A stretch of 64,000 nt of DNA from Gloeobacterales cyanobacterium (lineage in GTDB: Bacteria; Cyanobacteriota; Cyanobacteriia; Gloeobacterales; PMM-0068), in the NCBI GenBank assembly GCA_038245785.1, contig JBBRSB010000002.1, positions 160,001 to 224,000 of the forward strand, given 5' to 3'. The position numbers and the translations under genes are program-made. The notes under the pieces are model-generated. The model searched no databases. It was not told where the DNA came from and saw only the letters and a list, made by a program, of their open reading frames with translations. Positions 5,190 to 53,870 of this stretch are shown here, one piece after another. Each line of letters opens with the position of its first letter. Position 1 is the first letter of the stretch.

Positions 5190-5408
5190 GAGCAGCGAGG
5201 CAGACTCGAAGGAGAGCGGTCGCTCGTCATGCGCCTTCTAACCCGTCGACTTGGTACCCTCCCCACAAGCGTTGAGGCACAAGTCCAAGCACTAGACTTA
5301 CCCCGGATTGTGGTCCCTGAGTCTTGTCGAAGGGAGGCTTTGAGTGAAGCGCTCCTAGATTTTGCACAGTGGTCTAATCTGAACGATTGGTTGCAAGTCA
5401 ATTCCTGA
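5145..5408 (+). CDS. Stand-alone RpnS-like DUF4351 protein (duplicated Rpn C-terminus) carrying a 24-nt in-frame insertion
   Basis: MQIVTSWMEQG...LVMRLLTRRLG...EALSEALLDF. Purine-rich SD region upstream, copied from 4817-4896. Confidence 0.75.
   Translation: MQIVTSWMEQGIAEGEQRGRLEGERSLVMRLLTRRLGTLPTSVEAQVQALDLPRIVVPESCRREALSEALLDFAQWSNLNDWLQVNS
5310..5333 (+). repeat. 24-nt micro-element (SDR-like), copy A, in frame within the RpnS-like gene
   Basis: GTGGTCCCTGAGTCTTGTCGAAGG. Removing it restores LPRIEALSEALLDF. Confidence 0.8.
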
Positions 5409-5440
5409 AGAAGTTTAATAAGCTTCCCTCTAAGGAAGTT

Positions 5441-6325
5441 TCAGCTTAAGAGATTTTTCTCCTTCGACAGGCTCTTACTCTGGAATACGCTGCCGAGTGC
5501 CTCTGGGCCTTGCGGTCCTTGCTTTCGCTGTGACAGGCGCGTGATAAGACCCAAAATATAACCCCGTAGCCCAGGGTCATGCGCCTTGAAAAGTTCGCCC
5601 ATCAACCAGAGAACAGGGGCTGCTGCTCCATCGGTTTTTAGCGTTATGGAATCCGTACTAGCATCAATCGATGCTGCTGAGTAGAACACTCTGTAGTTGG
5701 CCCTTCCAGTTTGGAGAACATCGAATAGGGGCTGCAAATTTTGTTCGACTTTTTCTTTCCAATCTTTTCCATTGGCATCCGATTTAATTAAATCTGCTTT
5801 GGTGACTACTAAAGAAAAAGCATATTTGAGCTCATTTAGGTGGGCCAAAGAGGCAATGATCTGGAGCTGATAAATCAATTCATTGAGTCCTTCCATATAG
5901 CTTTCTTCATGGACAAGGGCGTAGCCATCGACAAAGAAGCAACAGCCATGGGACGAGAGGACAATATCTCTAAAAGATTCATTCTCCGGGGTGCAAATTT
6001 CACCAGGGATATCGTGCCAGCCAAAATGACAAAGGGTCTGACTCCCTATCAGACCACGTTGCTTGAGGCTAAAATCAAAATCTAGCGTCTTCATCGTTGC
6101 TGGGGGATATTCTCCTGCACGTGCAACGTAGTCCAAAATAAGCTCGATATTCTTTTTGGCTTGGTCCGTTTGACAGTCAAACCATAGAGGACCCCGTTCT
6201 TTCTGACTGAGGCTCTGCAGTGCTGCATAGCTGCCAGCAAGAAATACGGTTTTGCCCACACCCCTCTGCCCCATAACCAATAGACTAAAGCGTTTGGCAG
6301 GACTTCCAAAAAACAGATTCGGCAT
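5441..6325 (-). CDS. Small TRAFAC-class P-loop GTPase (double-GTPase-like), function unknown
   Basis: G1 GQRGVGKT, G2 PPAT, G3 DIPGE, G4 TKAD, G5-like SA. Confidence 0.75.
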   Translation of the reverse strand: MPNLFFGSPAKRFSLLVMGQRGVGKTVFLAGSYAALQSLSQKERGPLWFDCQTDQAKKNIELILDYVARAGEYPPATMKTLDFDFSLKQRGLIGSQTLCHFGWHDIPGEICTPENESFRDIVLSSHGCCFFVDGYALVHEESYMEGLNELIYQLQIIASLAHLNELKYAFSLVVTKADLIKSDANGKDWKEKVEQNLQPLFDVLQTGRANYRVFYSAASIDASTDSITLKTDGAAAPVLWLMGELFKAHDPGLRGYILGLITRLSQRKQGPQGPEALGSVFQSKSLSKEKNLLS

Positions 6326-6419
6326 ATTGATTAAGTGTATTTTGTCTTTCAGATTGCCTTAGAAGGGGCCTAAATGCAGTATGTGAAACTACTTAGCCTG
6401 GCCGAAGCAGGGATCGCAG

Positions 6420-6800
6420 CTAAGAAACTGAAGGGTGATTGGTATGAGAAAGGTCTTCGATCTGCTTTTCGAGTTCTAGAACCTTGGCTTCTAAAGCTTC
6501 TTCCTCTGTCTTCAGTTGGGAAATCTGAATCTCTTGGGTATGAATCTTGGTATCTTCTTCCTGAACGACCTGTTGAAGCTTTTGGACCTGTTCTTCTGTG
6601 ACCTCTTTGGCATCCGTTGCTATCCGAGGCCCCATGAAGTAGGTATAGACCCACCCCAAACAGAGAACAAATACCACACCGCTTAACCAAGTCCCTGCCG
6701 TAGGAGCGGAAGCTCCTGAAGCAAGAGCAAAACTATAGACCAGCAATACGCCCAAAAGCATCACAAAAAGACTGGAAGGGCGCATAATTTTACGAAGCAT
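6420..6800 (-). CDS. Hypothetical protein with two TM helices and a C-terminal coiled coil
   Basis: Two hydrophobic segments followed by an E/Q/K heptad-rich tail. SD GGAGG upstream. Co-oriented with the GTPase. Confidence 0.7.
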   Translation of the reverse strand: MLRKIMRPSSLFVMLLGVLLVYSFALASGASAPTAGTWLSGVVFVLCLGWVYTYFMGPRIATDAKEVTEEQVQKLQQVVQEEDTKIHTQEIQISQLKTEEEALEAKVLELEKQIEDLSHTNHPSVS

Positions 6801-6908
6801 TAGAGTATCCTCCGGAAAGATTTGGTTTGTCCCTGCTCCGGTTGCGTCAGCACCTGTGCTAACGGCACTCTCATCATAGTGCTCCGTTCATTTAGTGATG
6901 ACTTGCCC

Positions 6909-7781
6909 TTACTTTTCTACAAAGACGATATCTAAGAGATCGGCCTGGAAAGCAATACGGCTATTTCTCTGTTCTAAGAGATCACTAAGCTTTAATTCCA
7001 TCACATCCATAACAACCACCCGGTCATTTTCCATACGAGAACTACCTTCTGTTGAAATCAGCCAGTCACCCAAATTGCCTCGAAAGCCCTTTTCTACCGC
7101 TTTCAAGTAATCGGTACAACGCCGAAATAGCTTAGATAAAATCAATTGCCCATCGGGAGGACTGATAGATTTTTGGTCAATTAAAACGAATTCGCTGGTG
7201 CGGTCTTCTCCCCAAACGCCCAGCTTTTTATCCCGTGCTTCAGAAGCAACCTGACGTAGAAATTCTCGATGACTCAAGGGCGCAGAAGTGTAGGCGGTGT
7301 AATAGGCTAGACCTTCTTCTAAAAGGCGGAAATTAAGAGTTCGTTTTAAAAGGGCATCATCGACTTTTATCCACTGTCCATCGTCCAATTTTTTGGCATC
7401 AAGTAATACATAGGATACAGGACGACCATTGGTTTCAGCAGCGACAGAGAGAATGGCTCCCGGTATTTGCTCTGGATCCGAAGCCGTTACTTTATTGCCT
7501 GTGAATTTAATGTTGGTGAAGCCCATCCAGTCCAAAAGCTGGTCACGGGCTTCTTTGCCCAAAGGCTGAACGGCAGCTCCGTAATGCAATTCTGGAGCAT
7601 CGATCCCCTCAAAGCGAAGCTGAACGCTCTTATCCACATTCGATGGCTTAATCCGAAAAGAGCGCTTGAGCGTGCGATAGAGTTTGGAGTTATTGGCAAT
7701 GAAGCGCACTGAATCTCCATCAGGCTCCTTCCCCACAATCACAAAATTACCTTGGATAACCTGATAGAAAGGTGATGCCAT
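6909..7781 (-). CDS. Thermonuclease (SNase) family protein
   Basis: PDGDSVRF, LRFEGIDAPELHY, GRPVSY, A..ARDKKLGVW. Confidence 0.8.
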   Translation of the reverse strand: MASPFYQVIQGNFVIVGKEPDGDSVRFIANNSKLYRTLKRSFRIKPSNVDKSVQLRFEGIDAPELHYGAAVQPLGKEARDQLLDWMGFTNIKFTGNKVTASDPEQIPGAILSVAAETNGRPVSYVLLDAKKLDDGQWIKVDDALLKRTLNFRLLEEGLAYYTAYTSAPLSHREFLRQVASEARDKKLGVWGEDRTSEFVLIDQKSISPPDGQLILSKLFRRCTDYLKAVEKGFRGNLGDWLISTEGSSRMENDRVVVMDVMELKLSDLLEQRNSRIAFQADLLDIVFVEK

Positions 7782-7849
7782 AGCTCCATTTTCCCCGCGC
7801 GTTATTGGCCGGAATCTTAAAGGAGGAATGTTAAGGAATTATTAAATAA

Positions 7850-8071
7850 CCCTGACAAGCTGATTAGACATTAGAGATTGAAGAGTTTGATTTGTCCGTC
7901 TTTGTATAACTTTTGATACTCATTTCCGAGCTGCTTCACATAATTCATAATCGAGTTCTTATCCTCGTGTGTTCCCACTGTGCTCACAAAATAGCCGCCC
8001 GACCAAAACTCCCCTCTCCACATGTGACGCTTGTGGAAATATAATATTTGACTCTGTACTTGACGATGCAA
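7850..8071 (-). pseudogene. IS200/IS605 TnpA (Y1 transposase) C-terminal remnant
   Basis: MWRGEFWSGGYFVSTVG...IMNYVKQLG..Y.KL....IKLF matches the TnpA C-terminus. The N-terminal HUH region is absent. Confidence 0.75.
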
Positions 8072-8147
8072 GCGACGGAGGAATTGACCCGGAGAGATTA
8101 AAAAATATCGATCTTAATTAACTTTCCGTCAGTTAGCTAAGGCGACC

Positions 8148-9302
8148 ATGGTCCAAGGAGGGCGCGCTATAACGACAAAAATTTCAGCACCATTCTCTAT
8201 TTATTTGGATTTACTTAGGATATTAGCTGCGTCGGTAGTTGTGATTGGTCATTATCCGGTTGGAACCTGGCAATCAGATATCACTAGCCGCTACAACCTC
8301 GGCTATGATGCCGTAGTCGTGTTTTTTGTATTGTCCGGATATGTTATTAGTTATGCAGCAGCTCAAATAGAAAAAACATGGCTTAATTATGTAGTTAATC
8401 GTGCTGCACGGATATTGCCAGTGTCAACTGCAGCGGTTTTATTGTCTCTATTTCTTATGTATTTTGGCCAGCTGTATCGACCTGATTTGTATCCTGATGT
8501 TAGTCAACTTCACAATATTCCTTATTATTTTGGGCTGACAGTGTCCCTCGTTAATGAGTTTTGGTGGAATGATGTTAGGCCGTTTGGTAACGGCCCCTAC
8601 TGGAGCCTTGCACTTGAGGTCTGGTGTTATGTCATATACGGGATCGCTTTATTCGTACGTGGGCGTCAGCGCTTTATTTGGGTGACATTGGCGCTACTGG
8701 CTACGGGACCCAAGCAGATAATTTTCCTACCGGTCTGGCTTGCTGGGTCGTTCGCCTACCATTTGCGTGATAGGTTTACACTTTCTCGAAGTGCTCTTTC
8801 ACTTATGTGCGTCGGGCCAGTTATCACTTACTGTGCTATCCAGCTAAATTCACAATGGGATTGGTCCTATCCGTTGGCTGGGCAGTATATAGAGCGTTGG
8901 CTGGGGCACGGCTTGGATGGGGCTGCTAATTTTGGCTGGGCTTATATTCTCGCACCGCTCGTCGCTGTCCACTTGTTTGCAGTTAATCGCTTAGGGAGTA
9001 TGCTGCATTTCCTAGAGCATCCTGTGATTTCTAATTCGATACGCCGAGTAGCAAGCTATACTTTTAGTCTTTATATTTTTCATTATCCATTGATTACTTT
9101 TTGGAAGGCCATGCTTAATCACAATGCCGATGGCTTTGATCCATTTTACAGAGGTCTCGTATATGCCGGAACCATTATTCCGATAATATTTTTAGCTCGA
9201 ATACTTGAGCATAAAAAAAGATACTATCGCAACTTATTTATCCATCTTTTTACTGTTGCTCAGCGACTCGTTGCTCGGTGGTCTAAGGCCACCTCCCTAT
9301 AG
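8148..9302 (+). CDS. Acyltransferase family 3 (OafA-like membrane acyltransferase)
   Basis: YLDLLRILAA.VVVIGH, VVFFVLSGYVI, NGPYWSLALEVWCY, FSLYIFHYP. Confidence 0.88.
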   Translation: MVQGGRAITTKISAPFSIYLDLLRILAASVVVIGHYPVGTWQSDITSRYNLGYDAVVVFFVLSGYVISYAAAQIEKTWLNYVVNRAARILPVSTAAVLLSLFLMYFGQLYRPDLYPDVSQLHNIPYYFGLTVSLVNEFWWNDVRPFGNGPYWSLALEVWCYVIYGIALFVRGRQRFIWVTLALLATGPKQIIFLPVWLAGSFAYHLRDRFTLSRSALSLMCVGPVITYCAIQLNSQWDWSYPLAGQYIERWLGHGLDGAANFGWAYILAPLVAVHLFAVNRLGSMLHFLEHPVISNSIRRVASYTFSLYIFHYPLITFWKAMLNHNADGFDPFYRGLVYAGTIIPIIFLARILEHKKRYYRNLFIHLFTVAQRLVARWSKATSL

Positions 9303-9432
9303 TAGCCACGAATTGAACCGATTAAGCTACTTAGGGTGAATCCACTCAAGCTAGTAGCCTGCCTGCTGTTTAGACAGTACACAAACAACAAAAAATTTGC
9401 ACGATACTCTGCCTGAATGATCCCCGCAGACA

Positions 9433-9618
9433 ATGGTCATGTTATCGTTAAGAAACCTTACATTACTTAACAAACCCGTGCAAAAAGTAGAAGACTTCGT
9501 TTCCCTCGCCCAGCTCAATCTAGCCAAAAAGTTTCAGAAAAGAGAACAAGGTCCTCTGGAGATCATCCTGTGGCGCTTGGGATTCATCACCACAGACCAG
9601 CTCGCCATGCTCTTCTAG
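9433..9618 (+). CDS. DUF2949 family small cyanobacterial protein
   Basis: GPLEIILWRLGFITTDQL resembles the DUF2949 GPLPMILWQYGL..L.QL motif. Confidence 0.65.
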   Translation: MVMLSLRNLTLLNKPVQKVEDFVSLAQLNLAKKFQKREQGPLEIILWRLGFITTDQLAMLF

Positions 9619-9644
9619 AGAACAGACCGCACGCGACCGACCCT

Positions 9645-11408
9645 CTAACTTTCTAATTCAATCATCCGACCGTCTGGCAATTCGCTTAGACGATTTTCTA
9701 AGCTTCCTTCTTGCCCAATTTTTGACTGTCTCCAGAATAGCTCTGTGACCACAATCGCTTTTCCTCCTGTGGGAGGAGGAATGAGGGGACCCATGCGATA
9801 GACATCATCCACCGCGATTTGGGCAATTTCTCGAGGCGCCGTAGTGTTTTCTTCTAAGATATCCACAGAGCCAATCGAACCATCGGTTTCAATGCGATAG
9901 CGTACTACCGTCCATTGGTCCTGTCCTAGCTGACTAAAGTAAATGTCATAGCTCGTAGGGTCTATCCTCAAACGATATGACAGATAGTCACTGTAGGAAC
10001 GCGGAATTCCCTGCTTTTGTTTTGCTTGTTTCTGTTTGCGCGGTTTGGTGGAGGCTCCGTCTCCCTTGGAGGAAGCAAGGATTTCTTTTTGCTCCTTGCT
10101 GTTAAGTTTATCCTTGCCGTCTTTGGTCCCTTCCGCGCTACTACCATGCCCTGTGAGCGTTTTTGGAGTTTCCACGAGATCGAAGACCATGGGTGGGGTT
10201 TGCCCTTCTCCTGCTTGCTTAGCGCTAGGGCGACCGCCACCATTGCTCAGAATAGGAACGAGCACCAAAAGTAGCACTACGGATATATGCCCAAGATAAG
10301 ACCTGCCCAGATTCTGGACCATCTGATTGCGCTTTTCCGGCGGCAGCAGATAATCAAATTGTTGACTTTTGGCCGTGGCATAGGCGTCCCAGATGCCGTA
10401 GAGCAGAAATAGGACAGAAACAGTGCCCAAAAGCGTTAAAAGAGGCGAATTCTGTAGACCCTCGACAAACTTCAGGGAATCTTTGCCTAAGGTCAGCCCT
10501 CCCAGCTCCAACAGGGCCAGTGTCGGCAGAGGATAACTCAGCAAGATGCCCAGGACGAGCAATAATAGCCCATTGGAAATCCCCACCCTGCGGAAGGCCT
10601 TACCCTTTTCAGGCTCCTGGTTATAGAACTGACCCCAACCAGGGATGAGAGACAACAGGGCAGCCCGCCAGGGACTTTTTTCCTGCAGAGGCGGAGGGGT
10701 ATAGGGTTGATAAAGTTCCTCCTCGCTGCCGCCCCAACTGGGCGAGTATTGCCGAGCTTTCTTGCTGGCCTTGAAACTCCACCAAACCAGCCAAAGGATA
10801 AAGCTAAACAAACTGAAGGTAGCTATAGGACCATTCTGAAAAGCGAGAAAATCGTAGAACCCATGGGCAACGACGGCCCACCACAGAGCTGTGAAGCCCC
10901 AGCCAGTGCTTGTCTTAGTTTTGCCCAGGTAGTAGCCCAAGACAACTCCCAGAAGCCCATGCATCGGTACAGCCGTAAAAGCACGGACGATGGCTGTATC
11001 CATACCACCGTTGAGCACATAGATAATATTTTCCGTCGCCCCAAAGCCTAGCCCAACAGCGGTAGCGTACAGAATGCCGTCGTAGCGCTCTTTAAAGCAG
11101 TCAAGTCGCCAGAGGAACGAACGCATAAGCAAAAATTTGGCTCCCTCTTCCGCCAGTCCAACTCCAATCACCGTAAAGAAGGCCAGGGTCCCCAAACTGC
11201 TGACGCCCCAGGGCTTAACCATGAGCACTTGTTCAATGCCCAAGGCTAAAAGCGCTGAACCAACCCCCATCAAAACAGCTAGCGCAATCGTCCACAGAGG
11301 ACGCGGGATCAGCAACCGCTTTCTATTCTCCAGATGGACTGAAACCACAGTCAAAAAAATTAGGGCTGGGGCAACAGCGGCTGCTATTAGCACAGGGTCT
11401 GGCATCAT
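9645..11408 (-). CDS. PrsW-family intramembrane metalloprotease fused to extra TM segments and a TonB/TolA-like C-terminal domain
   Basis: GLAEEGAKF, GLGFGATENIIY, AVPMHG, AHGFYD; then SPWRAALLSLIPGWGQFYN, a Lys-rich linker and VVRYRIETDGSIGSV...GPLIPPP. Confidence 0.8.
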   Translation of the reverse strand: MMPDPVLIAAAVAPALIFLTVVSVHLENRKRLLIPRPLWTIALAVLMGVGSALLALGIEQVLMVKPWGVSSLGTLAFFTVIGVGLAEEGAKFLLMRSFLWRLDCFKERYDGILYATAVGLGFGATENIIYVLNGGMDTAIVRAFTAVPMHGLLGVVLGYYLGKTKTSTGWGFTALWWAVVAHGFYDFLAFQNGPIATFSLFSFILWLVWWSFKASKKARQYSPSWGGSEEELYQPYTPPPLQEKSPWRAALLSLIPGWGQFYNQEPEKGKAFRRVGISNGLLLLVLGILLSYPLPTLALLELGGLTLGKDSLKFVEGLQNSPLLTLLGTVSVLFLLYGIWDAYATAKSQQFDYLLPPEKRNQMVQNLGRSYLGHISVVLLLVLVPILSNGGGRPSAKQAGEGQTPPMVFDLVETPKTLTGHGSSAEGTKDGKDKLNSKEQKEILASSKGDGASTKPRKQKQAKQKQGIPRSYSDYLSYRLRIDPTSYDIYFSQLGQDQWTVVRYRIETDGSIGSVDILEENTTAPREIAQIAVDDVYRMGPLIPPPTGGKAIVVTELFWRQSKIGQEGSLENRLSELPDGRMIELES

Positions 11409-11510
11409 GCGTGAGGAGTTCTTAGTAGACTATCCCCACTTTAGTCAATAATGCCAAAATGCCAAAACACTCACATGGAGCAGATTATAAATATTCTTGA
11501 TAATTGGTCA

Positions 11511-12221
11511 TTAACGGCCTAGCGCTTTTAAAAGACGATTGCCTGCTTGCCATGCAGCCTTTAAGAGATTCTGTCCATCCGCCGCCGTATAGAGGTCCTG
11601 GCTAAGTTCTTCGGCTGTAGGCCGTGACCCCTTCTCGCTGACCAAAGTGTAGTCTTCCGCATCATCCTTGGAGCTCTCTTTCCAGACCTGCCAGTTTGAA
11701 GGATAACGGCGGTAGATCGCTCCCCCTTCAACAGGCTGCAGATAAAAAACAGGCTCTAAGGTACTTAAAAAACGGCTCCTTAGTTGTCTACCGACTAAAC
11801 CGATACCAACAGCCCCGGCTTCTCCCAAACGAGAATTAAGGATGATATAGGGCCGAGTTCCCCAGGACTCTGCCAGCTTTTCTAGGGACTCGACTTCAAC
11901 CATGCTGATTTCCACCAGCAGAACGGCCCCATAGGCTTCAGAATTGGTCAGCCGCTGGTTGATACCCTGTATCGGATAGCTCACTTCCCCCAGACGCTGA
12001 CGGGCCAGAGCAGCGGCCCCTGCATCCGGATAAAGCACAAGCGGAGGACGCTCTGGATCCTCCGCTAAACTTTCCGCCAAATAACGAACAACATCTAGAA
12101 CATCTAGACCGGGAGAGCGCAGCACAATTTCCTGACGAAATTTTCCCGCCTGTGCTGCCTGCTGGACGCCCCGGAGACAGTCCTCCAAGGCATCGCTGTA
12201 GGTTTTCGGAAGTTCACTCAT
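11511..12221 (-). CDS. DUF1995 family protein
   Basis: LPKT..DA, YPDAGAAALAR, VGIGLVGRQLRSRFLST, GAIYRRYPSNWQVW. Confidence 0.85.
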   Translation of the reverse strand: MSELPKTYSDALEDCLRGVQQAAQAGKFRQEIVLRSPGLDVLDVVRYLAESLAEDPERPPLVLYPDAGAAALARQRLGEVSYPIQGINQRLTNSEAYGAVLLVEISMVEVESLEKLAESWGTRPYIILNSRLGEAGAVGIGLVGRQLRSRFLSTLEPVFYLQPVEGGAIYRRYPSNWQVWKESSKDDAEDYTLVSEKGSRPTAEELSQDLYTAADGQNLLKAAWQAGNRLLKALGR

Positions 12222-12227
12222 AGGACT

Positions 12228-12713
12228 CTAGGACAAACCCTTGGCTAGGTAGTCAAAGTATTTAGCCATCTCTTGAGCAGCAGCAGGTTCAACGCGATTG
12301 GCCACCGCTGCTTTTAAAGCATTGATCGAATTTACGGTTTCAGGCAGAGGAACCCCAAGCGATTTGTACATCGGTTTGAGCCCTTTCAAAACCCAGTTCT
12401 CCAGAAGCGCCGTATCTCCGGCAACCATGGCGTAGGTGGCGTAGCGCAAGAAGTAACTCATATCCCGAATACAGGAGGAGTAACGGCGGGTATAGTACAT
12501 ATTGCCACCGGGCTTCGTCGTAGCGGTATACAAGAGTGACTTGGCTGTGGCCTCTTTGACGATGGCACTGGCTTCAGACTCTATCGTGCTGGCTGCACGA
12601 ATCCTCAGTGCTCCCGTACTAAAGTACCCTTTCATCTTTTCGATAGCCGCATTATCTAGATACTTCCCCTGGGTATCATATTCGTTGATGATGGCCGAAA
12701 TAGTGTCCTTCAC
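12228..12713 (-). CDS. apcB2: Allophycocyanin beta-type subunit, divergent ApcB paralog (161 aa)
   Basis: DTQGKYLD, AKSLLY, PGGNMYYTRRYSSCIRD (chromophore Cys), YFLRYATYAM. GTG start with SD AGGAGA. No adjacent apcA. The family is certain; the symbol is tentative. Confidence 0.8.
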   Translation of the reverse strand: MKDTISAIINEYDTQGKYLDNAAIEKMKGYFSTGALRIRAASTIESEASAIVKEATAKSLLYTATTKPGGNMYYTRRYSSCIRDMSYFLRYATYAMVAGDTALLENWVLKGLKPMYKSLGVPLPETVNSINALKAAVANRVEPAAAQEMAKYFDYLAKGLS

Positions 12714-12814
12714 AAACAGGTTCTCCTATACATCGCAGGTTTGGCACTGGGCAGCATTGTACAGCGGTAGCCACAAGCCTATAGGAATCGTTACGTTTTT
12801 TCATCTAGGGATAA

Positions 12815-13081
12815 TTAATTAATCGCCAAGCTAACGTATGCCTGTCCATCGATGATAGTCGGTTCGGCATTGGCAGGAAGGGCCGCTTGTACTGGCTCAG
12901 GTAGAGGAGTCATCCGAATCTGGGCGGCCTTCAAAGCCTTGGCCAGATCTGCCTGAAACGCTTCGGGCTCTATCGCTAACTCTGCCCGCAGCACCTTGAG
13001 CGAAACGTAGGGATAGCCAAACTCTTCTCGGTGAGCTTCAACAGCAGCTTGAAGCCTGGTAATGAAATTGGATTTAGCCAT
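12815..13081 (-). CDS. Hypothetical protein (88 aa)
   Basis: ATG start, protein-like composition, fills the gap between co-oriented genes. Confidence 0.6.
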   Translation of the reverse strand: MAKSNFITRLQAAVEAHREEFGYPYVSLKVLRAELAIEPEAFQADLAKALKAAQIRMTPLPEPVQAALPANAEPTIIDGQAYVSLAIN

Positions 13082-13162
13082 AGAAAAAGCGGAAACAGCA
13101 TGCAGACTGCCCCCACTCTAACTCGAGGATTGAACACCGAGAACAGGACAAGCCCAGGATGC

Positions 13163-14146
13163 TTATAGAGAAGGGGTCCCGATAGCTACGCGCTGCCCAT
13201 CTCCTAGAACGGAACGGACGACCTCATCCACCACCGTTTGACTAAAATGCTCAGCTGCCCAAACGATACTGTCTAAAACCTGGCCTCCCTTTCTGACCTC
13301 TGTGCCATGACCAATGCAGCTATAGCCCATTACCACAGCCCCTGAATGGATATGGCAATTTTCTCCAATCACCGCATTGCGAGAAATAATAGCGCCTGGC
13401 TCAATGATCGTGTTCTTGCCAACTCGGTCCTTGAGATTGGCGTGGGTCAAAAGATCCCAGTGGGTATAGAGGTATTGCGCTAGCGTCCCGACATCGGACC
13501 AATAGGCTTCGGTTTTCATGGCATAGACAGGAGCACCCTTCTCCACTAAAAGAGGAAAGAGTTGATTCCCGAAGTCAAACATTTCCCCCTCGGGGATGTA
13601 ATCTAATACTTCCGGTTCAAAAATATAAACGCCCGTATTGGCCATTCGGGACTTTTCAGTTCCTAAGGTAGGCTTTTCTTGGAAAGACTGAATCCGTCCT
13701 GAGGCATCAGTGACCACGATTCCGAAGCGGGAAGGGTCGCCTACTTCCTTAGTTGCCATGGTGGCTACTGCTCCACTGGCCCTGTGGAAAGCCAGAAGAC
13801 TACTCAGGTCTAGGTCTGTCACCAAATCGCCAGAGATGACCGCGAAGGTCCCACTGCCTAGAAAATCTGCCTGCTTGCGAACACCTCCTGCGGTGCCCAA
13901 CAGGTTATCCTCCCAGGAGTACTGGAGGTTTACATTCCAGGTGCTGCCATCACCGAAGGCGCGCTCGATCTTTTCGCCCTTGTAGTGTAAGTTAGCGACT
14001 AGGTCAGTAAATCCGTGCCGACGACAGAGGTTCATCACCCCCCCCATGACAGGCTGGTTTAGCACAGGGACTAGGGGTTTAGGAATCTCATCGGTAAAAG
14101 GTCGCAAACGGGTTCCCTTCCCTGCGGCCAACAAAAAAGCTTTCAT
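13163..14146 (-). CDS. NDP-sugar pyrophosphorylase (mannose-1-phosphate guanylyltransferase / CugP-like) with hexapeptide repeats
   Basis: MKAFLLAAGKGTRLRP, GTAGG, FQEKP, YWSDVGT, C-terminal left-handed beta-helix repeats. Confidence 0.88.
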   Translation of the reverse strand: MKAFLLAAGKGTRLRPFTDEIPKPLVPVLNQPVMGGVMNLCRRHGFTDLVANLHYKGEKIERAFGDGSTWNVNLQYSWEDNLLGTAGGVRKQADFLGSGTFAVISGDLVTDLDLSSLLAFHRASGAVATMATKEVGDPSRFGIVVTDASGRIQSFQEKPTLGTEKSRMANTGVYIFEPEVLDYIPEGEMFDFGNQLFPLLVEKGAPVYAMKTEAYWSDVGTLAQYLYTHWDLLTHANLKDRVGKNTIIEPGAIISRNAVIGENCHIHSGAVVMGYSCIGHGTEVRKGGQVLDSIVWAAEHFSQTVVDEVVRSVLGDGQRVAIGTPSL

Positions 14147-14290
14147 CGCTAGCATTCACTCCTGAAACAAGGGCAGCATCTTCATAAGCCTTTACATGGA
14201 GCTTATATTAGGAACTCTAGTGCCTAGAACTTTTGTTGGAGGTATCATGAGAGACATTCTCTCATGAGTATATATACTGGCTCCCTTTAT

Positions 14291-15442: not shown

Positions 15443-15527
15443 ATCCCGCCCGCTGTCTGTATCGAAAGCTATACTTTTAATAGTTTTGTCTCCTTGTTTT
15501 CCATCGTTGCCCATCCGTACTTCAATT

Positions 15528-16628: not shown

Positions 16629-16831
16629 TAATACTGAACCCCATGCATGAAAGGCTGCGGTCTGTTCATAGAGAGCAACCTAGAGAATTTCATCATATGA
16701 GGCGCAGGATTGAACAGTGCACCCTTCTTAAGGTATGTTTACGGAACAAGCTGCCTCAATTATTCGACTCTGCTCGAGTAGCTGACTCTTTGGCTAAGCT
16801 TGCAGATAAGTACGATTTGGCTAATTAGGAG

Positions 16832-18412: not shown

Positions 18413-18437
18413 ATTAGGAGGAGGAGAAAGTGTCTAA

Positions 18438-44564: not shown

Positions 44565-44592
44565 ACTTCAGGTCTATCTAACAGGAACATTT

Positions 44593-45402: not shown

Positions 45403-45463
45403 GAATGTCTCCCGACGCCCCGAGTCGAAGGGAGCTGTCTCCTAGGAACTGAGGGTTGAGGAT

Positions 45464-46882
<1,419 letters not shown>

Positions 46883-46947
46883 TCAACGAAATTTCTAGCA
46901 GCGGGTGACCTGTAGGTCTTTGGGACCTCTAAGGTTCTTAGAGCCTC

Positions 46948-47781
46948 TTAAACCAAGGCAGGGACTTGAGGATTCAGGTAGAAGTCAGACAACAAGGAGA
47001 ACAATTCCCGGTCTGGTTTTTCCTGGGGGACGATTCCTTCAGGCATAGAGAGGAGATGGTCTGCGATGTTCAAGTAGTACTGGCAGACGGGCTCTACGCT
47101 GGGGTCTGTTTCCGCCAACTCAAAAATGGTTTTGCCTTTGACGCGGGAGATCCGGATATCTTCCACGAGCGGCAAGACTTCTAGGATGGGCATCGGCACC
47201 GCTTCTACATATTTATCAATCAAATCTCGCTTAGAGGTACGGTTGCCCACAAGACCAGCTAGACGCAGGGGATGGGTACGCGCTTTCTCCCGGCAAGAAG
47301 CGGCAATCCGATTGGCCGCAAACAGGGCATCAAAGCCGTTGTCCGTAATGATGACGCAATAGTCAGAATAGTTGAGAGGCGCGGCGAATCCACCGCAGAC
47401 CACGTCCCCAAGGACGTCAAACAAAATAATATCAAACTCTTCAAAGGCTCTCAGCTCTTTTAGTAGTTTCATCGTCTCGCCGACTACATAGCCACCACAG
47501 CCTGCACCCGCAGGAGGACCGCCTGCTTCTACACAGTGGACACCGCCGTAGCCTTTGTAGATGACATCTTCTGCCCACACGTCTTCGTAGTGGTAATCCT
47601 TCTCTTCCAGGGTGTCGATAATGGTAGGGATTAGGAAACCAGTCAGAGCAAATGTGCTGTCGTGCTTAGGGTCACATCCGATTTGTAATACGCGCTTCCC
47701 GCGCTTAGCCAAAGCTACAGAGATGTTGCAGCTCGTTGTGGATTTGCCGATACCACCCTTGCCGTAGATCGATAGTTTCAC
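46948..47781 (-). CDS. chlL: Dark-operative protochlorophyllide reductase iron-sulfur ATPase subunit L
   Basis: [43 protein letters not shown]. Confidence 0.96.
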
Positions 47782-48172
47782 TGTTTTCTCCTGAGTGGGT
47801 ACCTTTCGACACGTAACGGAAGCAACATCTGCTCCCTTTATTCCTGCAATCGGTAGATTGAATCTCCTGGAATTATACAGTTAGTTAATTAATCCTCAAC
47901 GAAACCCAGAATATCCTTCCGAAGGGCAACCTGGATGGATGCAGACGTTATCAGAAGAGCGTTCCAAGGATGTAAAAAGAATTTTTATTCTTTGAAAGAA
48001 AGATTAAGGTTTCAGTTATTTTGTTAAGCTATATTTACAAAGATGTATATGAATGGATCCAGAGCTATTCAGGCGAATCTCATAGGGCATCCCGAAAATC
48101 ACCGATGAAGAGTTTATATTTCCACTTGCGCCAACATCAACTTGTGATGCAAACTTTTATGAAGTGCTTTAG

Positions 48173-48838
48173 ATGAACTTAGTGGACCCTTCAGAATCCT
48201 ATAGCCTCTTGGGCGTTTCGCCAGGGGCTAGTTTAGACACAATTAAGCAGGCTTACCGAAGGCTAGCAAGGCAATATCACCCGGATGTGGCGGGTGAACA
48301 GTCTAAGGAGCGCTTCCAACAGGTCAATGAGGCTTATCGAGTCCTTTGCACATGGACTCAAGAAGTGCAGCAAGCCCCTCCTACCCCGTCATCCAAGCCT
48401 CAGCCGCAAACACCAACCAAGTCGGCTCCGGCCTCTATCCGGATGGAGGTCAAAAGGGCTCCATCCTCACCATCTTCTCCCTTGACGCCCAAGCCTATGC
48501 CAGCACCGAATGCGCAAGCGAGAAAGCTCTCTGGTCCTGAACAGCAAGATTTTGAGAAAAGAGTGTTTTACCTTAAAAAAGCGCTGAAGAGCAGAGACTG
48601 GGTCTATGCTTTGTCTCAGGCCGAGAGCCTATTCGACACTTTGCCTGGTTATCCGGAAGCTATACACCTTTTGGCCATTACCTATCAGCGTCGGGGGAAT
48701 GCCCTGATTATCGAGAAAAAATACTCTCAAGCTCGTGCCTATCTGGCAAAGGCGCTACAAACCGAACCCAACAATAAAGCCTTAGCTTTTGAGATTGAGC
48801 GTGACTTACAGCGGATTAGCCAATCTTCGCAGGGTTGA
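48173..48838 (+). CDS. DnaJ-domain protein with a Pro-rich linker and TPR
   Basis: IKQAYRRLARQYHPD; C-terminal ARAYLAKALQTEPNN. Confidence 0.85.
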   Translation: MNLVDPSESYSLLGVSPGASLDTIKQAYRRLARQYHPDVAGEQSKERFQQVNEAYRVLCTWTQEVQQAPPTPSSKPQPQTPTKSAPASIRMEVKRAPSSPSSPLTPKPMPAPNAQARKLSGPEQQDFEKRVFYLKKALKSRDWVYALSQAESLFDTLPGYPEAIHLLAITYQRRGNALIIEKKYSQARAYLAKALQTEPNNKALAFEIERDLQRISQSSQG

Positions 48839-48844
48839 CCCTAC

Positions 48845-48882
48845 AAAAAACTGCCTCCCACATAATCGTGAGAGGCATTTTT
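48845..48882. terminator. Bidirectional intrinsic terminator
   Basis: AAAAAAC-TGCCTCCCAC-ATAATC-GTGAGAGGCA-TTTTT between convergent genes. Confidence 0.7.
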
Positions 48883-48897
48883 AAAAGACCTTGAACC

Positions 48898-49536
48898 TTA
48901 TTTATTGGGTTGAGGGGTCAGGCGCAGATAGGGCTTGACGGCCTTGTATCCTTTAGGGAACTTCGCTTTCAGTTCTTCGGGATCTGTAATCGAAGGCACA
49001 ATCACGCAATCATCTCCATCCTTCCAGTTGACTGGAGTCGCCACACTATAGTCATCCGTGAGCTGCAAGGAGTCGATAACCCGCAAAATCTCTGTAAAGT
49101 TGCGGCCCGTGCTGGCTGGATAGGTCAAGATTAGACGGAGCTTTTTCTGGGGGTCAACGATGAAGACCGAACGAACCGTTAAGGTGTTGTTGGCATTGGG
49201 ATGAATCATATCGTAGAGGTCGGAAACCTTACGGTCTGGGTCTGCCAGAATTGGATAGTTCAAAGCAGAGCCTTGAGTTTCTTGAATATCACCCACCCAG
49301 CCCTTATGAGATTCAACATCATCCACGCTGAGGGCGATGGGTTTGATATTGCGTTGGTCAAATTCTGGCTTGAGGCGAGCTACTTCTCCCAGCTCTGTGG
49401 TGCATACGGGAGTGAAGTCTTTCGGGTGAGAAAACAAAATAGCCCACTTATCGCCCATCCAATCGTAAAAATGAATAGGTCCATCTGTAGAATCTTGGGT
49501 GAAATCAGGCGCATTATCGCCTAAACGAAGAGTCAT
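48898..49536 (-). CDS. 1-Cys peroxiredoxin
   Basis: FSHPKDFTPVCTTELG, YPASTGRNF, ATPVNW. Confidence 0.94.
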   Translation of the reverse strand: MTLRLGDNAPDFTQDSTDGPIHFYDWMGDKWAILFSHPKDFTPVCTTELGEVARLKPEFDQRNIKPIALSVDDVESHKGWVGDIQETQGSALNYPILADPDRKVSDLYDMIHPNANNTLTVRSVFIVDPQKKLRLILTYPASTGRNFTEILRVIDSLQLTDDYSVATPVNWKDGDDCVIVPSITDPEELKAKFPKGYKAVKPYLRLTPQPNK

Positions 49537-49702
49537 GTCCTAGTTCTCCTGCGGTCACAACGGCTTTTTCCGCATACTTAATATACACTGCGGGTTAACA
49601 ATACACCCTCTTTCCTATAGGGCTTTAGTGGAATAAGAAAGCTTTAATATTGGCAGCTGATTGGCAGCTCGTAGGTAGTCCTGCTATATTGTTTAAGCCT
49701 GA

Positions 49703-49779
49703 GGGCGTATAGCTCAGTTGGCTAGAGCGCATCGTTGACATCGATGAGGTCACTGGTTCGAGCCCAGTTATGCCCACCA
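49703..49779 (+). tRNA. trnV: tRNA-Val(GAC), CCA encoded
   Basis: Acceptor GGGCGTA/TATGCCC, D arm AGCTCAGTTGGCTAGAGC, anticodon arm CATCG-TTGACAT-CGATG, T loop GGTTCGAG. Confidence 0.96.
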
Positions 49780-49782
49780 TTT

Positions 49783-49811
49783 AAAAACCCGCTATCCAGG
49801 CGGGTTTTGTT
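49783..49811. terminator. Intrinsic terminator after tRNA-Val
   Basis: AAAAACCCGC-TATCCAG-GCGGGTTTTGTT. Confidence 0.8.
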
Positions 49812-49832
49812 GTATCTAGAGGACTCCTGTGG

Positions 49833-50288
49833 CTACGCCAGTGTGGTGGAGCCGTTGAAATAGTCCTGAAGTTGGCGCTCATGGTCGTGGGTGAGGGTAT
49901 GTATGAGTAAGGATTCTGGAGAGAATGCTTGCACATCCAACACTTCCATGGGGTCTTTTACAGACATTACTCCTGCTACTTCCACTTCCACAACAATGCA
50001 AATAGAATGGACCCGGCCATCTCGCTCTGGTGATGAATACACCCCAACCAGACGGCGGATTTTTTCAACCTTCAAACCAGTCTCTTCTTCTATCTCCCGG
50101 TGAACGGTGGTTGGAATGTCTTCACCCCAGTCCACCATCCCTCCTGGCAATCCCCACTTGCCACTATCTCTCCGTTGAATCAGCACAATCCGACCATCAG
50201 GGAGAATTGGAATAATATTAGTACCCGTAACCGGATGACGGAAGAGGAAGCCCAACACAGATTGCCCAAAGTGCCATAAACGATGCAT
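49833..50288 (-). CDS. NUDIX hydrolase
   Basis: Nudix box GGMVDWGEDIPTTVHREIEEETGL. Confidence 0.9.
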   Translation of the reverse strand: MHRLWHFGQSVLGFLFRHPVTGTNIIPILPDGRIVLIQRRDSGKWGLPGGMVDWGEDIPTTVHREIEEETGLKVEKIRRLVGVYSSPERDGRVHSICIVVEVEVAGVMSVKDPMEVLDVQAFSPESLLIHTLTHDHERQLQDYFNGSTTLA

Positions 50289-50402
50289 AAATTCAAAGAG
50301 CCATAGAAGAACTATTAAAACGGTGTGGATAAAAGTGGTTTCATCACTTAGTCAAGTGTAGAACAATCTTTATTGCAAGGTTTGTGCTGCACGAATGGAC
50401 GT

Positions 50403-51878
50403 TTAATTTTGAACTTGTTGAGCCGATAAGTTTTTTTCTTCTGCTAAAGCTTTAAATTGCTCCTCAGTTAGCCGCCCAGCATCATGAAGTGTCTCAGCAA
50501 TTTCAGGAATGGTTAATACGGCATGCCCGCGATAGCCATTTTCTTGGAGTATATCTTTCGCTCCTTGCTGATGGTCGATGAATACTACGAGGTCATGGAC
50601 CTTTAGGCCAACTGATTTGAGCTTTTCTGCTCCTTCCATGACGCTTTTCCCCGTAATCAGAATATCGTCGATTACGACAACTGTTTCTCCCTCCCGATAA
50701 TTCCCTTCAACCAAGCGACGACCGGCATAGGATTTGACTTCCTTCCTTGGGAAAATCATTGGACAGCCAAGGCGCAGGGCTAAGCCTGTCGCTATCGGCA
50801 AAGAACCATAGGGAATGCCTGCAATTCGGTCAAACTCAAGATCTTTCAAAATATCGGCATAAGCACTAAGAATTTGGTGAAAAATCTGGGGAGTCGAGAC
50901 GATTTTGCGCAGGTCAATGTAATAGGGCAAGGTCTTTCCAGAAGCTTTTATATGGTCACCAAAGGTGATGCAACCAAGGTCATAAAGCTGGAGAATTAAA
51001 TCTCTATGAGACTGCTTATCTAGAAAACAGACATTCGACATCCATACCGAACAGGCAGGATTTCCATTAACAATCTCACGTCTTTCGTGATTAATCACTT
51101 CTCGCAAAACCTTGATCGATTCTGCTGGATCTTCACTATTTAAAAGGTTTTGCGGTACAGGAAGGATCAGTCCATCTCCACTCGCCGTCAAACCAGCAGC
51201 TAATATCTGGGCAAGATTACTGTCATCGGCCCAAATAGTAGGAGCCAAAATAATTCTTTCTGGAGCTATCTTTCGAATGCGCGCCAGAACTTCAGGTACC
51301 ACTGCCCCTACTTCAAAGGCCAACTGTTCTGGCGTTCCCCAGGTTTTAGCTTCTTTGGCTATCTGTAAATAGAGAGGAGATTCTAAAGTCGGATACTCTT
51401 GCACAACAGCAGCAGAAGGATTAGCAGTCGTGCACAAGATAAAGACAGCTTTCTCTAAATAAACCAAAAAAGGAGCTACCTGATCCTGTCCAGCATAGGG
51501 AATCAGTGTTACTGCGTCTACGCGACCATTGAGAAAAACTGTCCCAGCAAAGACTGTGGCCGTTTCAAGGTCTCCATGTTTTGCATCTAGAATAATCGGA
51601 ATATGAATAGGGATAGAGACCAAGGTCTTACGCAACAGCTCTAAGCCTGGAGGTCCTAGAGCCCTATAAAATTCTAGCGTTGGCTTGTAGGCACATACTA
51701 AATCCTTAGTCTGGGCAATCAGGTATTGCAGCCATTCATCCAAACAAGTCAGGAGACCACGGTTCGTCTTCATAGAACTATAACGAGCAGGTAGTATCTC
51801 AGGGTTAGGATCGAGTCCTACACACAGCAGACTCTGGTTGCGTTCGACAGCATTGTTGAGCTTATCAAGAAAGTTCAC
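50403..51878 (-). CDS. pyrFE: Bifunctional OMP decarboxylase / orotate phosphoribosyltransferase (PyrF-PyrE fusion)
   Basis: LCVGLDP, AYKP, ILDAKHGD; then YYIDLR, RKEVKSY, VVVIDDILITG. Confidence 0.9.
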   Translation of the reverse strand: MNFLDKLNNAVERNQSLLCVGLDPNPEILPARYSSMKTNRGLLTCLDEWLQYLIAQTKDLVCAYKPTLEFYRALGPPGLELLRKTLVSIPIHIPIILDAKHGDLETATVFAGTVFLNGRVDAVTLIPYAGQDQVAPFLVYLEKAVFILCTTANPSAAVVQEYPTLESPLYLQIAKEAKTWGTPEQLAFEVGAVVPEVLARIRKIAPERIILAPTIWADDSNLAQILAAGLTASGDGLILPVPQNLLNSEDPAESIKVLREVINHERREIVNGNPACSVWMSNVCFLDKQSHRDLILQLYDLGCITFGDHIKASGKTLPYYIDLRKIVSTPQIFHQILSAYADILKDLEFDRIAGIPYGSLPIATGLALRLGCPMIFPRKEVKSYAGRRLVEGNYREGETVVVIDDILITGKSVMEGAEKLKSVGLKVHDLVVFIDHQQGAKDILQENGYRGHAVLTIPEIAETLHDAGRLTEEQFKALAEEKNLSAQQVQN

Positions 51879-51892
51879 TTTTCGACCGTTGC

Positions 51893-52030
51893 TTAAGAAG
51901 CTTCTGCCTGGAATTCTTCTACCCTAGCCCACTGCACCGCACATTCTTTAGAACCAGCCCTTTGTGCTTCACAAATCGTACAGGCTTCTTCCATCGCTTT
52001 TTGACTTTCCTCTGTGTTCAATTCCAAGGG
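51893..52030 (-). pseudogene. CP12-like N-terminal fragment, truncated
   Basis: AMEEACTICEAQRAGSKECAVQWARVEEFQAEAS* resembles the CP12 C..CAxAWDxVEELQAEAS core. It stops before the C-terminal Cys pair. Confidence 0.6.
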
Positions 52031-52259
52031 TGTATTACAGTTAGGAAGTCCTAGAGACCTATGTGGAAATTTACCAGCAGGAAGGTCGTGCCCTGCCTCC
52101 CGCGCTTGTCCTTCAACTTGCGTAAAACTAGGCTTTATAGGCAGCAGCGCGATTAGCTCAATCATGAGGACGCGACATATAGGATAGAGCACACATCTAA
52201 AAAAGCCACTTTAGCAGGTGTCCAGTGAAAGTATCATGGGATATAGGTTTGAAAGATTT

Positions 52260-52302
52260 AGGCGGCACCCAGATTCGAACTGGGGGTAAAGGATTTGCAG
52301 TC
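52260..52302 (-). mobile_element. 3' half of tRNA-Cys(GCA): att-like scar at the left border of an integrated island
   Basis: Minus strand GACTGCAAATCCTTTACCCCCAGTTCGAATCTGGGTGCCGCCT gives the anticodon loop, T arm, acceptor 3' strand and U discriminator. No D arm or 5' acceptor strand upstream. Confidence 0.82.
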
Positions 52303-52313
52303 TTGTCTCTGCT

Positions 52314-52338
52314 CCCTTCGACTCCGCTCAGGGAGCAG
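52314..52338 (-). repeat. Micro-element copy B (intergenic, beside the tRNA scar)
   Basis: CCCTTCGACTCCGCTCAGGGAGCAG inside a TCTGCTCCC/GGGAGCAGA stem. Confidence 0.75.
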
Positions 52339-52378
52339 ATTTCAGAAAGAGTCAAAGGCACCGTCTACTAATTTTCTA

Positions 52379-52792
52379 CTAATTCAGGATTTGAACATCA
52401 GGGTAGACAAGGATTTTTCGGTCAGCCGTTAACAACGGGCAACTATGAATTCTGGCTGTAGCCACAATAATTTGGTCTGCTGGGTCATTGTGAAAGCCAA
52501 CTAATTTGGTTGACTCAACCACAATGGGAAGCGTTAAATCGAGCAACTGCACCCCTGGGTAGGCCAAAGCACCTACAAGCCAATCATCAATGGAAACAGG
52601 CAAAGTGAGGCGGCCTTTTTCAACTAACTTGGCAACTTCCCAGCAGGAGAAGATGCTGACTCCCAATCCCTGTGTCCCCTGAGCAGAGTCGAAGGGAGAC
52701 TGATATTGTTGAAGCCATTGTTGATGTTGTTGGGTCAGTCTTGCATCTCCCTGTACCCACCAAACCCAGATATGCGTATCAAGGACAATCAC
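52379..52792 (-). CDS. vapC: VapC family PIN toxin with a 24-nt in-frame insertion
   Basis: IVLDTHIWVWW, SCWEVAKL, HNDPADQIIVATA, LTADRKI. GTGA coupling to the upstream antitoxin. Confidence 0.88.
   Translation of the reverse strand: MIVLDTHIWVWWVQGDARLTQQHQQWLQQYQSPFDSAQGTQGLGVSIFSCWEVAKLVEKGRLTLPVSIDDWLVGALAYPGVQLLDLTLPIVVESTKLVGFHNDPADQIIVATARIHSCPLLTADRKILVYPDVQILN
52672..52695 (+). repeat. Micro-element copy C, in frame within vapC
   Basis: GTGTCCCCTGAGCAGAGTCGAAGG. Removing it turns QS[PFDSAQGT]QGLGVS into QSQGLGVS. Confidence 0.82.
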
Positions 52793-53034
52793 TGCAACAC
52801 TTCCCACTCCTCCGGAGGGACAGCTGGTTCGAAAGGGCCTTCATAGTGGTATGGCTGCTTGCCACGCAGTGGATACAAAGTGGACTCTAACTGATTCGCT
52901 AGCACTTTTTCTGGCAAGGTACTGGGACGCTCCAGAATAATTATTTCAACGGCATCCCCGGCATGAAATGGTAAATCTCGCAAAATCAAAGTACCGTCTT
53001 CCGCCAAAATTGTTTCCACCTTGTGCGCATTCAT
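52789..53034 (-). CDS. Putative antitoxin for VapC (AbrB-like N-terminus)
   Basis: EDGTLILRDLPFHAGDAVEIIIL...YPLRG...Y..PFEPAVP..EW. Translationally coupled to vapC. Confidence 0.78.
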   Translation of the reverse strand: MNAHKVETILAEDGTLILRDLPFHAGDAVEIIILERPSTLPEKVLANQLESTLYPLRGKQPYHYEGPFEPAVPPEEWEVLQ

Positions 53035-53301
53035 GGCTAGATTCCCTCAATCTGCGGTGACATACTCCTACAGTGTAGGCTTCTCTCGGCTTCGTCTGCC
53101 AGACACGCCTACCGGAAACAGTGACGGTTAGCGATTTTGGGACAATAGAGTTGAACGCTTTGAGACTGATTTTCTGAGCTTACAGGCTAGGCTGGATTGT
53201 CGGGGCATCAATCTGTTGTGGCAAGTCGATGTGTCCGTTGTTTTTGACAAAAGAATTTCCGTAGCCAGAAGTGTTCGTCTCCATTGCGTGCAACAAGTAA
53301 A

Positions 53302-53320
53302 TGAGATACAACGTATCTCA
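53302..53320. promoter_or_regulatory. Palindromic operator of the dinJ-yafQ module
   Basis: TGAGATAC-AAC-GTATCTCA, 20 nt upstream of the antitoxin ATG. Confidence 0.65.
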
Positions 53321-53340
53321 ACCAATAAAAAGAGGTCGCT

Positions 53341-53640
53341 ATGGCTACCCGTTCGACAAGCTCAGGGACCACTACGATGGTTCACGTACGCGTGGACGAA
53401 CGATTGAAGATGCAGGCTACTGAAACGCTTGCTGCGATGGGGTTGTCTGTCTCCGATGCAGTGCGTGTGTTCCTGATGCGCGTCGTCGCCGAGAAACAGC
53501 TCCCGTTCACGCTCAAGGTGCCGAACACCGAAACGCTCGCTGCAATAGAAGAGGCCGACGAGATTATACGGACGCGCCGCACTCGCTTTGCTAATGCCGT
53601 TGAACTGTTCGATGACCTCGAAAAAAACAGCGGCAAGTAA
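53341..53640 (+). CDS. dinJ: RelB/DinJ family antitoxin with a 24-nt in-frame insertion near the N-terminus
   Basis: VHVRVDERLK..A...LAAMGLSVSDAVRVFL..V..EK.LPF..KVPN.ET.AAI.E. SD AGAGG. Confidence 0.88.
   Translation: MATRSTSSGTTTMVHVRVDERLKMQATETLAAMGLSVSDAVRVFLMRVVAEKQLPFTLKVPNTETLAAIEEADEIIRTRRTRFANAVELFDDLEKNSGK
53349..53372 (-). repeat. Micro-element copy D, in frame within dinJ
   Basis: CCGTTCGACAAGCTCAGGGACCAC, inserted after GCTAC. Confidence 0.8.
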
Positions 53641-53870
53641 GCGCGCTACCCTTCGACAAGATTTAGGGGCCACTCTGCTGCGTGCTTCGGATTATACAAA
53701 GTCTTTCCTCAAGGACTGGTGGCCCCTGTAAGCGCAGCTCATGTGCTTGGTCGGGAGCGGTTGTCACGTGCTGGACGGTACGACATGAACCGGGCAAAGG
53801 GCTCATGCTTATCGCCAACAATGGCCCGCTTGGACCTAAGCAGCTAACGAACAAGCTAACTTTGTTTTAG
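53612..53870 (+). pseudogene. yafQ: YafQ family toxin, disrupted by two insertions, a frameshift and 3' truncation
   Basis: MTSKKTAASKRA[+8 aa]TLLRASDYTKSFLKDW[35-nt insert with TAA]ERLSRAGRYDMNR.../MLIANNGPLGP. The ATG overlaps the end of dinJ. Confidence 0.78.
53650..53673 (-). repeat. Micro-element copy E, in frame within yafQ
   Basis: CCTTCGACAAGATTTAGGGGCCAC, inserted after GCTAC. Confidence 0.8.

Follow-up and report, generated by a model that had tools for sequence, protein, structure and literature searches.

The small dispersed repeats (SDRs) SDR1 to SDR8 of the Nostocaceae, which Elhai reportedly described in 2008, are said to be dispersed units of 21-27 nt that insert precisely, nest and enter genes in frame. 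SDR5, a unit of 21 nt, inserts precisely in HIP1 (PMC4390886, PMC5861425, PMC13756078), and its function was still called unknown in a paper from 2026 (PMC13756078). According to the accessible text of Chenal et al. (2025, PMC11893778), the Ssn nucleases bind a hairpin as single-stranded DNA and act on transforming DNA, and the cut made by SsnA lies a few nt 5' of the NTS. Here we analyse a stretch of 64,000 nt from a Gloeobacterales cyanobacterium, hereafter the window (G000:C2:160001-224000; the G000 assembly has 5.0 Mb in 255 contigs), and a 24-nt element, type A, that lies in several of its genes. Type A is a discrete unit that has inserted precisely before a G and without duplication, has spread recently and shares its core with hairpins flanking nuclease genes.

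The element is best read as an SDR-type micro-element, a likeness that is drawn from the features reported for SDRs. Like the SDRs, it has a length within 21-27 nt, occurs in many dispersed copies, inserts precisely as judged from empty alleles and nests in other small repeats. Unlike SDR5, it has a single G as target, none of 29 curated flanks being HIP1, and unlike the SDRs it is found beyond the Nostocaceae and beyond the cyanobacteria and has a candidate enzyme linked to it. The core with a 4-nt spacer had no match in two N. punctiforme plasmids.

Type A also recalls the GTAG/CGTC-tagged repetitive extragenic palindromic sequences (REPs), REPINs and RAYT, which involve short tagged hairpins, some of them in genes including those of tRNA synthetases (PMC3733652, PMC3116915), and the Rickettsia palindromic elements (RPE; cited in PMC3733652), which insert in frame into functional genes. 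Unlike REP/REPIN-RAYT systems, however, type A has no outer 3' arm and is mostly single, no repeat-flanked RAYT was found in our analysis and the Y1 genes of the genome itself carry copies only as insertions. RPE-1 is much longer than the 24-nt element, and, unlike a miniature inverted-repeat transposable element, type A shows neither target-site duplication nor complementary ends.

Results

Empty alleles and precision of insertion

Type A has the sequence GTGG-Y-CCCTGAG-N4-GYCGAAGG and measures 24 nt, or 23 nt when the spacer has 3 nt. A complete palindrome built round the type-A core is referred to as type B, and the core may be drawn with a tandem G-A and GNA-loop structure. The genome-wide profile scan proposed in a preliminary description of the window was carried out with a profile built from matches in the genome, a score cut-off of 18 and the reversed genome as control, and it returned 46 matches in G000 at a score of at least 18 versus 0 in the control. 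These matches are a mixture of subtypes including palindromic relatives and about four probable chance matches, the latter being low-scoring (C8, C9, C25 and C3:95168, which falls in a glycosyltransferase gene) and resembling native coding sequence by eye. The lists of 29 and 39 sites used below were curated by eye from 65 candidates plus the sites of a sister-family scan; neither list includes palindromic type-B copies, duplicated IS110 copies (C45, C28:54716), the copy in a vapC paralog on C14 or probable chance matches, and the 39-site list counts each nested pair as one site.

Alignment of host genes with orthologs and paralogs, as likewise suggested beforehand, revealed empty alleles at 12 sites, at which the gain is 24 nt in nine cases, 23 nt in two and a net 21 nt in one (dinJ). 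Compared with their in-genome paralogs, five sites have gained exactly 24 nt (the 5' end of an insertion sequence (IS) of the IS110 type, two IS256 sites, C28:25175 and C72:1212) and two have gained 23 nt (IS256 C31:52281 and IS200 C31:49774). No target-site duplication was seen at the empty sites aligned with in-genome paralogs and orthologs of tyrosyl-tRNA synthetase (TyrRS), and the ends of the element have no complementarity. The TyrRS gene itself (G000:C29:23886-23909, L048) carries a 24-nt copy in frame, which adds an 8-aa loop near the N terminus and is absent from both same-genus orthologs. At the copy in a CheA-like kinase gene, the linker of the host does not align with homologs.

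We are highly confident that type A, with its 24 nt (or 23 nt where the spacer has 3 nt), is a non-autonomous micro-element whose insertions fall immediately before a G and leave no duplication, and that it is one of several mutually nesting families of 15-27 nt in this genome. The earlier idea of a recent, non-autonomous and precisely inserting 24-nt element akin to cyanobacterial SDRs thus holds, as empty alleles exist and the unit is largely confined to G000 within the genus. An invariant in-frame gain of 24 nt does not, given the two gains of 23 nt and the net gain of 21 nt, and from the wording 'active or recent' only the second part is borne out, the candidate nuclease gene described below being frameshifted here. 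Among the matches listed from other phyla, 41 distinct 24-mers always have a stop in one frame and almost never in the other five; together with the length of 24 nt, these five stop-free frames mean that the element can survive inside genes.

Target site

On the element strand, the base following the unit is a G at 28 of the 29 curated sites, and the positions after this G are, in order, not G at 28, A or T at 24, A, G or T at 26 and C or T at 22 of them. The five-base target G-Y-Y-W-C that had been deduced from the window fits four of the 29 sites, all of them window copies, and only its G is near-invariant. As the G is already present in the empty allele at all eight DNA-aligned sites (in-genome paralogs and TyrRS), it is a feature of the target. 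The 70 solo copies among the cross-phylum matches listed lean towards a pyrimidine at +2 (53/70), the G being forced by the search pattern in this set. Two further targeting rules found no support: guide-like pairing of the 5' arm of the element with the target, since none of four GCGG variants shows a shifted target base, and general targeting of hairpin loops, which applies to 2/70 solo sites versus 0.8% in controls. The type-A copies G000:C15:94054, C31:49486 and C43:15093 share one base that is the loop of a short repeated hairpin beside IS200-like genes.

Distribution and sister families

Within the genus, the pattern matches 14 times in G000 versus none in G001 and one in G002, and two more matches were found in 58 other relatives. 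The exact pattern is present in at least 121 stretches of GTDB genomes (80 of them named), among them Bacteroidota, Treponema, Microcoleus, Nodosilinea, Geobacter, Marinimicrobia and Acidobacteria. The 128 distinct copies among the matches listed comprise 19 nested in a hairpin with the same core, 39 arranged head-to-tail with another copy and the 70 solo copies. Two sister families accompany type A in G000. Family D, of 21 nt, has 30 copies (control 0), two of them in the window, and at four of its sites the empty allele shows a gap of 21 nt; it shares the GTG start and the distance between 5' end and core with type A, counts 13 copies in G001 and 21 in G002 and is also found inserted in IS genes and in type A. 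The second, family E, is a short hairpin that adds a net 15 nt; it has ten copies (control 0), and its nesting site is a single position in the A and B cores. D copies at C4, C16, C32, C43 and C72 contain a 36-nt insert. In forming a group of units of 15-27 nt that nest in one another, these families are like the SDRs of Nostoc. Another relative, G050, holds 326 core copies, many as close inverted pairs; a search of this assembly, which is 89% complete, for a flanked GIY-YIG or Y1 gene found none.

Host genes and clustering

IS transposases are the commonest hosts and toxin-antitoxin islets are also frequent, so that the proposed restriction to toxin-antitoxin and defence genes falls away, TyrRS being hit as well. 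Pfam assigned the host or adjacent open reading frames (ORFs) to IS110, IS256, IS200 and DDE transposases, MazF, Uma2, DUF4351, TyrRS, a CheA-like kinase and CobA, and contig C49, which has several copies, encodes a TrwC relaxase. The earlier remark that housekeeping genes are free of copies does not extend to the whole genome, in view of the in-frame copy in TyrRS. Multi-copy flanks were found at 16 of the 39 curated loci versus 3.6 expected, and for 19 of the 39 sites the nearest other site is no more than 2 kb away, versus 1.1 expected, or 1.6 under a null without long single-copy ORFs. Per 100 kb, multi-copy DNA holds 4.1 sites, single-copy DNA 1.9 where it lies outside long ORFs, and long single-copy ORFs 0.11. 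Selection, which removes most insertions in long single-copy genes, explains why core genes are depleted; the clustering, which persists against the null without long ORFs, suggests bursts in newly acquired DNA.

A candidate GIY-YIG nuclease gene flanked by core hairpins

At C16:63.4-63.7 kb, G000 has a small GIY-YIG gene that is frameshifted and carries core hairpins on its flanks. Among the best 80 of 537 confirmed metagenomic relatives of this gene, referred to as nuclease loci, core hairpins lie within 300 nt of the gene at 77, on both sides at 40, compared to 4/80 in the control; none of 11 other GIY-YIG loci of repeat-rich cyanobacteria has core hairpins. The 211 distinct flanking hairpins have variable stems, with a G at element position 3 in 97% and a T at position 5 in 80%, and their conservation begins at positions 2-3, just inside the 5' end of type A. 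The G at position 3 sits 11 nt before the loop G, which is the spacing of the Neisseria NTS (PMC11893778). The preliminary description had suggested looking for a Y1/REP-type transposase: none flanked by the repeat was found, and the repeat-associated gene turned out to be that of a GIY-YIG nuclease instead.

The proteins of the relatives are UPF0213-like by sequence and fold, their nearest solved proteins being UPF0213, whereas an NCBIfam search of the GIY-YIG protein was uninformative. They conserve Tyr6, Tyr16, Arg26, His30 and Glu63, and Tyr6, Tyr16 and Glu63 match Y6, Y17 and E64 of SsnA by spacing. The resemblance to Ssn as described in PMC11893778 thus comprises a single-domain GIY-YIG gene of about 100 aa (with the G000 copy frameshifted), oriented flanking hairpins, the distance between tag G and loop and the spacing of the catalytic Tyr/Tyr/Glu, and a small hairpin-flanked GIY-YIG gene with conserved catalytic residues amounts to the Ssn architecture. 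The published SRM pattern, however, fits none of the 211 flanking hairpins, so that on this test the gene is not a member of the published family. In the accessible text of the same paper, moreover, NTS copies are rarely in genes (2%) and no precise in-frame insertion of a truncated hairpin is described. Neither 'cd10456' nor 'UPF0213' occurs in its main text; its supplements may list this subfamily. We found no link in the literature between SDR-type insertion and GIY-YIG nucleases, most subscription journals lying outside the search.

For the co-occurrence of gene and element, 50 of 53 intended genomes were scored (L119, L128 and L132 were left out), together with a second set of five. The gene was found in 21 of these 55 element-bearing genomes (17/50 and 4/5), in 11 of 100 genomes sampled from the phylum to which G061 (Cyclobacterium) belongs and in 2 of 60 cyanobacterial relatives (E <1e-25). 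In the sample from the G061 phylum, at least ten cores are present in 5 of the 11 gene-positive versus 6 of the 89 gene-negative genomes, and all three gene-bearing cyanobacteria have at least 19 cores.

Copies in the window

All five copies reported for the window, four coding and one intergenic, are present at their coordinates. A scan with the earlier consensus pattern, allowing up to three mismatches, gave four matches versus 0.00 expected by chance, and the dinJ copy, which has a 3-nt spacer, was recovered separately. A type-A element of 24 nt lies in frame on the + strand at 5310..5333 in a DUF4351 gene (ORF 5070-5408) that the preliminary description had labelled RpnS-like and where six out of six in-genome paralogs have an 8-aa gap, in agreement with the exact gain deduced previously. 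A degenerate copy of the core lies just 3' of this gene (5455-5480, - strand).

A second exact in-frame gain of 24 nt was correctly recognised in vapC, a PIN-domain gene on the - strand (52379 to about 52789) with the element at 52672..52695 on the + strand: contigs of close relatives from two other studies (runs X2 and X6) lack the 24 nt, and the proteins P0002 and P0003, which are 96% and 95% identical to VapC, both lack the 8 aa. A truncated vapC paralog (G000:C14:99724, L045) carries a 23-nt copy with a different spacer at the same site, and the elements of the two paralogs diverge more than their flanks; the copy in the C14 paralog represents either an independent insertion or a conversion. 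The intergenic copy is of a different subtype than had been assumed, namely a perfect type-B palindrome on the - strand with the type-A core and a 10-bp stem (52308..52339, z -4.2), the form that flanks GIY-YIG genes; an empty allele was looked for and none was found.

The dinJ-yafQ pair is 73-77% identical to proteobacterial plasmid modules and contains three insertions in about 400 nt. The short-spacer copy (53349..53372, - strand) lies near the 5' end of dinJ (53341-53640). Since 110 of 119 homologs are 92 aa long, their first six residues running up to the second Met, and the product here has 99 aa, the net gain over typical homologs is 7 aa (21 nt), neither the 8 aa nor the compensated length proposed before. 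In yafQ (start about 53612), the type-A element at 53650..53673 (- strand) is an exact 24-nt gain, as predicted, with a 24-nt gap in the alignment to two plasmid homologs. A decayed type-A copy of 35 nt with a nested type-E insert (53719..53753, + strand; family E copy at 53729-53744) shifts the frame to a stop, and together with a 7-nt gap and truncation this makes yafQ a pseudogene.

Both type-D elements of 21 nt are on the - strand, one intergenic and in the same core register (53086..53106), the other diverged (54207..54227). Besides, the segment 52247-52302 (- strand) resembles by eye the 3' part of a gene for tRNA-Cys, no full tRNA being called, and an attachment site in a tRNA gene may have been where the toxin-antitoxin islet built up. 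A remnant of an IS200-like Y1 transposase gene lies at 7931-8038.

Discussion

Our preferred explanation, which is tentative and which we regard as plausible rather than probable, is that type A was derived from the hairpins flanking the UPF0213-like GIY-YIG gene and was moved with help from an Ssn-like nuclease that sets its 5' end, a link to the nuclease that we infer. Type A would be a truncated member of these hairpin repeats around a single-domain gene. The nuclease would bind the hairpin on single-stranded DNA and cut at a fixed distance 5' of it, this cut would fix the 5' end of the element, and ligation or repair synthesis by the host would place the unit in front of a G, at a nick or a gap. 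The targets would mostly be DNA with a single-stranded phase, namely incoming plasmids, IS elements, islets and other hairpins, and in G000 a nuclease cassette may have arrived, its copies spread and the gene then broken. We consider more doubtful the wider proposal of an undescribed UPF0213-type branch of GIY-YIG nucleases whose non-autonomous partner would be the 24-nt element found across phyla and which, unlike the characterised SsnA, would initiate the insertion of its cognate hairpin, without a scar, into incoming DNA in single-stranded form.

Several observations weigh against the involvement of the nuclease. The fixed 3' end of the element has no account in this explanation, type-A copies fold no better than shuffled sequences (z -0.8 to +1.1, standard DNA model), and no insertion activity of SsnA is reported in the accessible text of PMC11893778. 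The type-A pattern, allowing up to one mismatch, is present in only 8 of the 80 nuclease loci, and family D in none of them; a search of G001 and G002, both rich in family D, for a close member of the nuclease subfamily found none. At the thresholds used, the gene is absent from 34 of the 55 element-bearing assemblies, many of which are incomplete metagenome-assembled genomes, and from six cyanobacteria with 26-326 cores (G015, G027, G036, G050, G051 and G059). Finally, the genome counts on co-occurrence include kin and are therefore not independent.

The absence of the gene from most element-bearing assemblies would be expected if the host alone did the copying, an explanation that we hold to be unlikely but deserving of serious weight. 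A stalled or nicked strand would switch to a hairpin copy as template via 1-5 nt of microhomology, copy 21-24 nt and return, and the nuclease gene would merely share and seed the repeat. Such copying would fit the dinJ target, which resembles the 5' end of the element and shows the net gain of 21 nt, two of four D-type sites at which the empty allele has an A and the filled one a G, as if overwritten, the 58 of 128 cross-phylum copies (among the matches listed) that are nested in or head-to-tail with repeats of the same core, and the vapC paralogs, in which elements at one site diverge more than the flanks. Template switching alone, however, would be expected to yield ragged lengths, whereas the 24-nt ends are identical across phyla and in unrelated targets, with homology limited to one G.

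A Y1/HUH transposase (IS200/IS605 TnpA or RAYT) could move the unit by single-strand peel-and-paste, with GTGG, a variant of the REP tag, as REP-like 5' tag, but we regard this as improbable. The missing target duplication agrees with it, as do the six Y1_Tnp matches in G000, and head-to-tail copies are compatible with a circular unit; the GTGG before the stem also resembles GTAG-type REPs (PMC3733652). Yet the core is found at none of the 14 Y1 loci of four repeat-rich cyanobacterial genomes, and the Y1 genes here are victims of insertion, the C31 copy having inserts and its C43 and C88 paralogs none. A strict target of 4-5 nt is missing as well, and the target base is shifted in none of the four GCGG variants. 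As a separate observation, the 1.2-kb contig G000:C219 (L029) has a RAYT-like Y1 gene with inverted repeats of its own that are unrelated, and may be an assembly contaminant.

That an RNA copy was reverse-transcribed and then inserted at a nick is very improbable: this route is compatible with precise, duplication-free insertion but has no positive evidence here, Rfam gave no match, the partner gene is of a DNA nuclease type and SsnA is without RNA binding in the accessible text of PMC11893778. We virtually discount that the unit is not mobile and reflects chance similarity, slippage or an assembly artefact, since, although a few low-scoring profile matches look native, the 46 matches versus 0 in the control and the clean empty alleles already refute this, and contigs of run X1 (possibly the source sample) are identical to the filled window.

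Such tiny repeats were already known, but the core of this one also surrounds the gene of a small DNA-cutting enzyme. The mobility mechanism of repeats of 21-27 nt has been open since 2008, and the present case offers a candidate for the enzyme, a substrate and a prediction of where the cut falls, which makes the question testable with one protein and a few oligonucleotides. Insertion of type A is a route for adding loops of eight residues to proteins, an essential tRNA synthetase among them, and the case points to an Ssn-like branch that has a recognition hairpin of its own and would be of interest as a single-strand DNA tool. Even if the link to the enzyme is set aside, type A represents an SDR-type family that is well documented and has a broad range of hosts. 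If, on the other hand, the element is indeed the partner of a UPF0213-type branch of GIY-YIG nucleases, the smallest known mobile elements would have a nuclease-driven route of transposition, and the mobility of SDR-type repeats would be explained.

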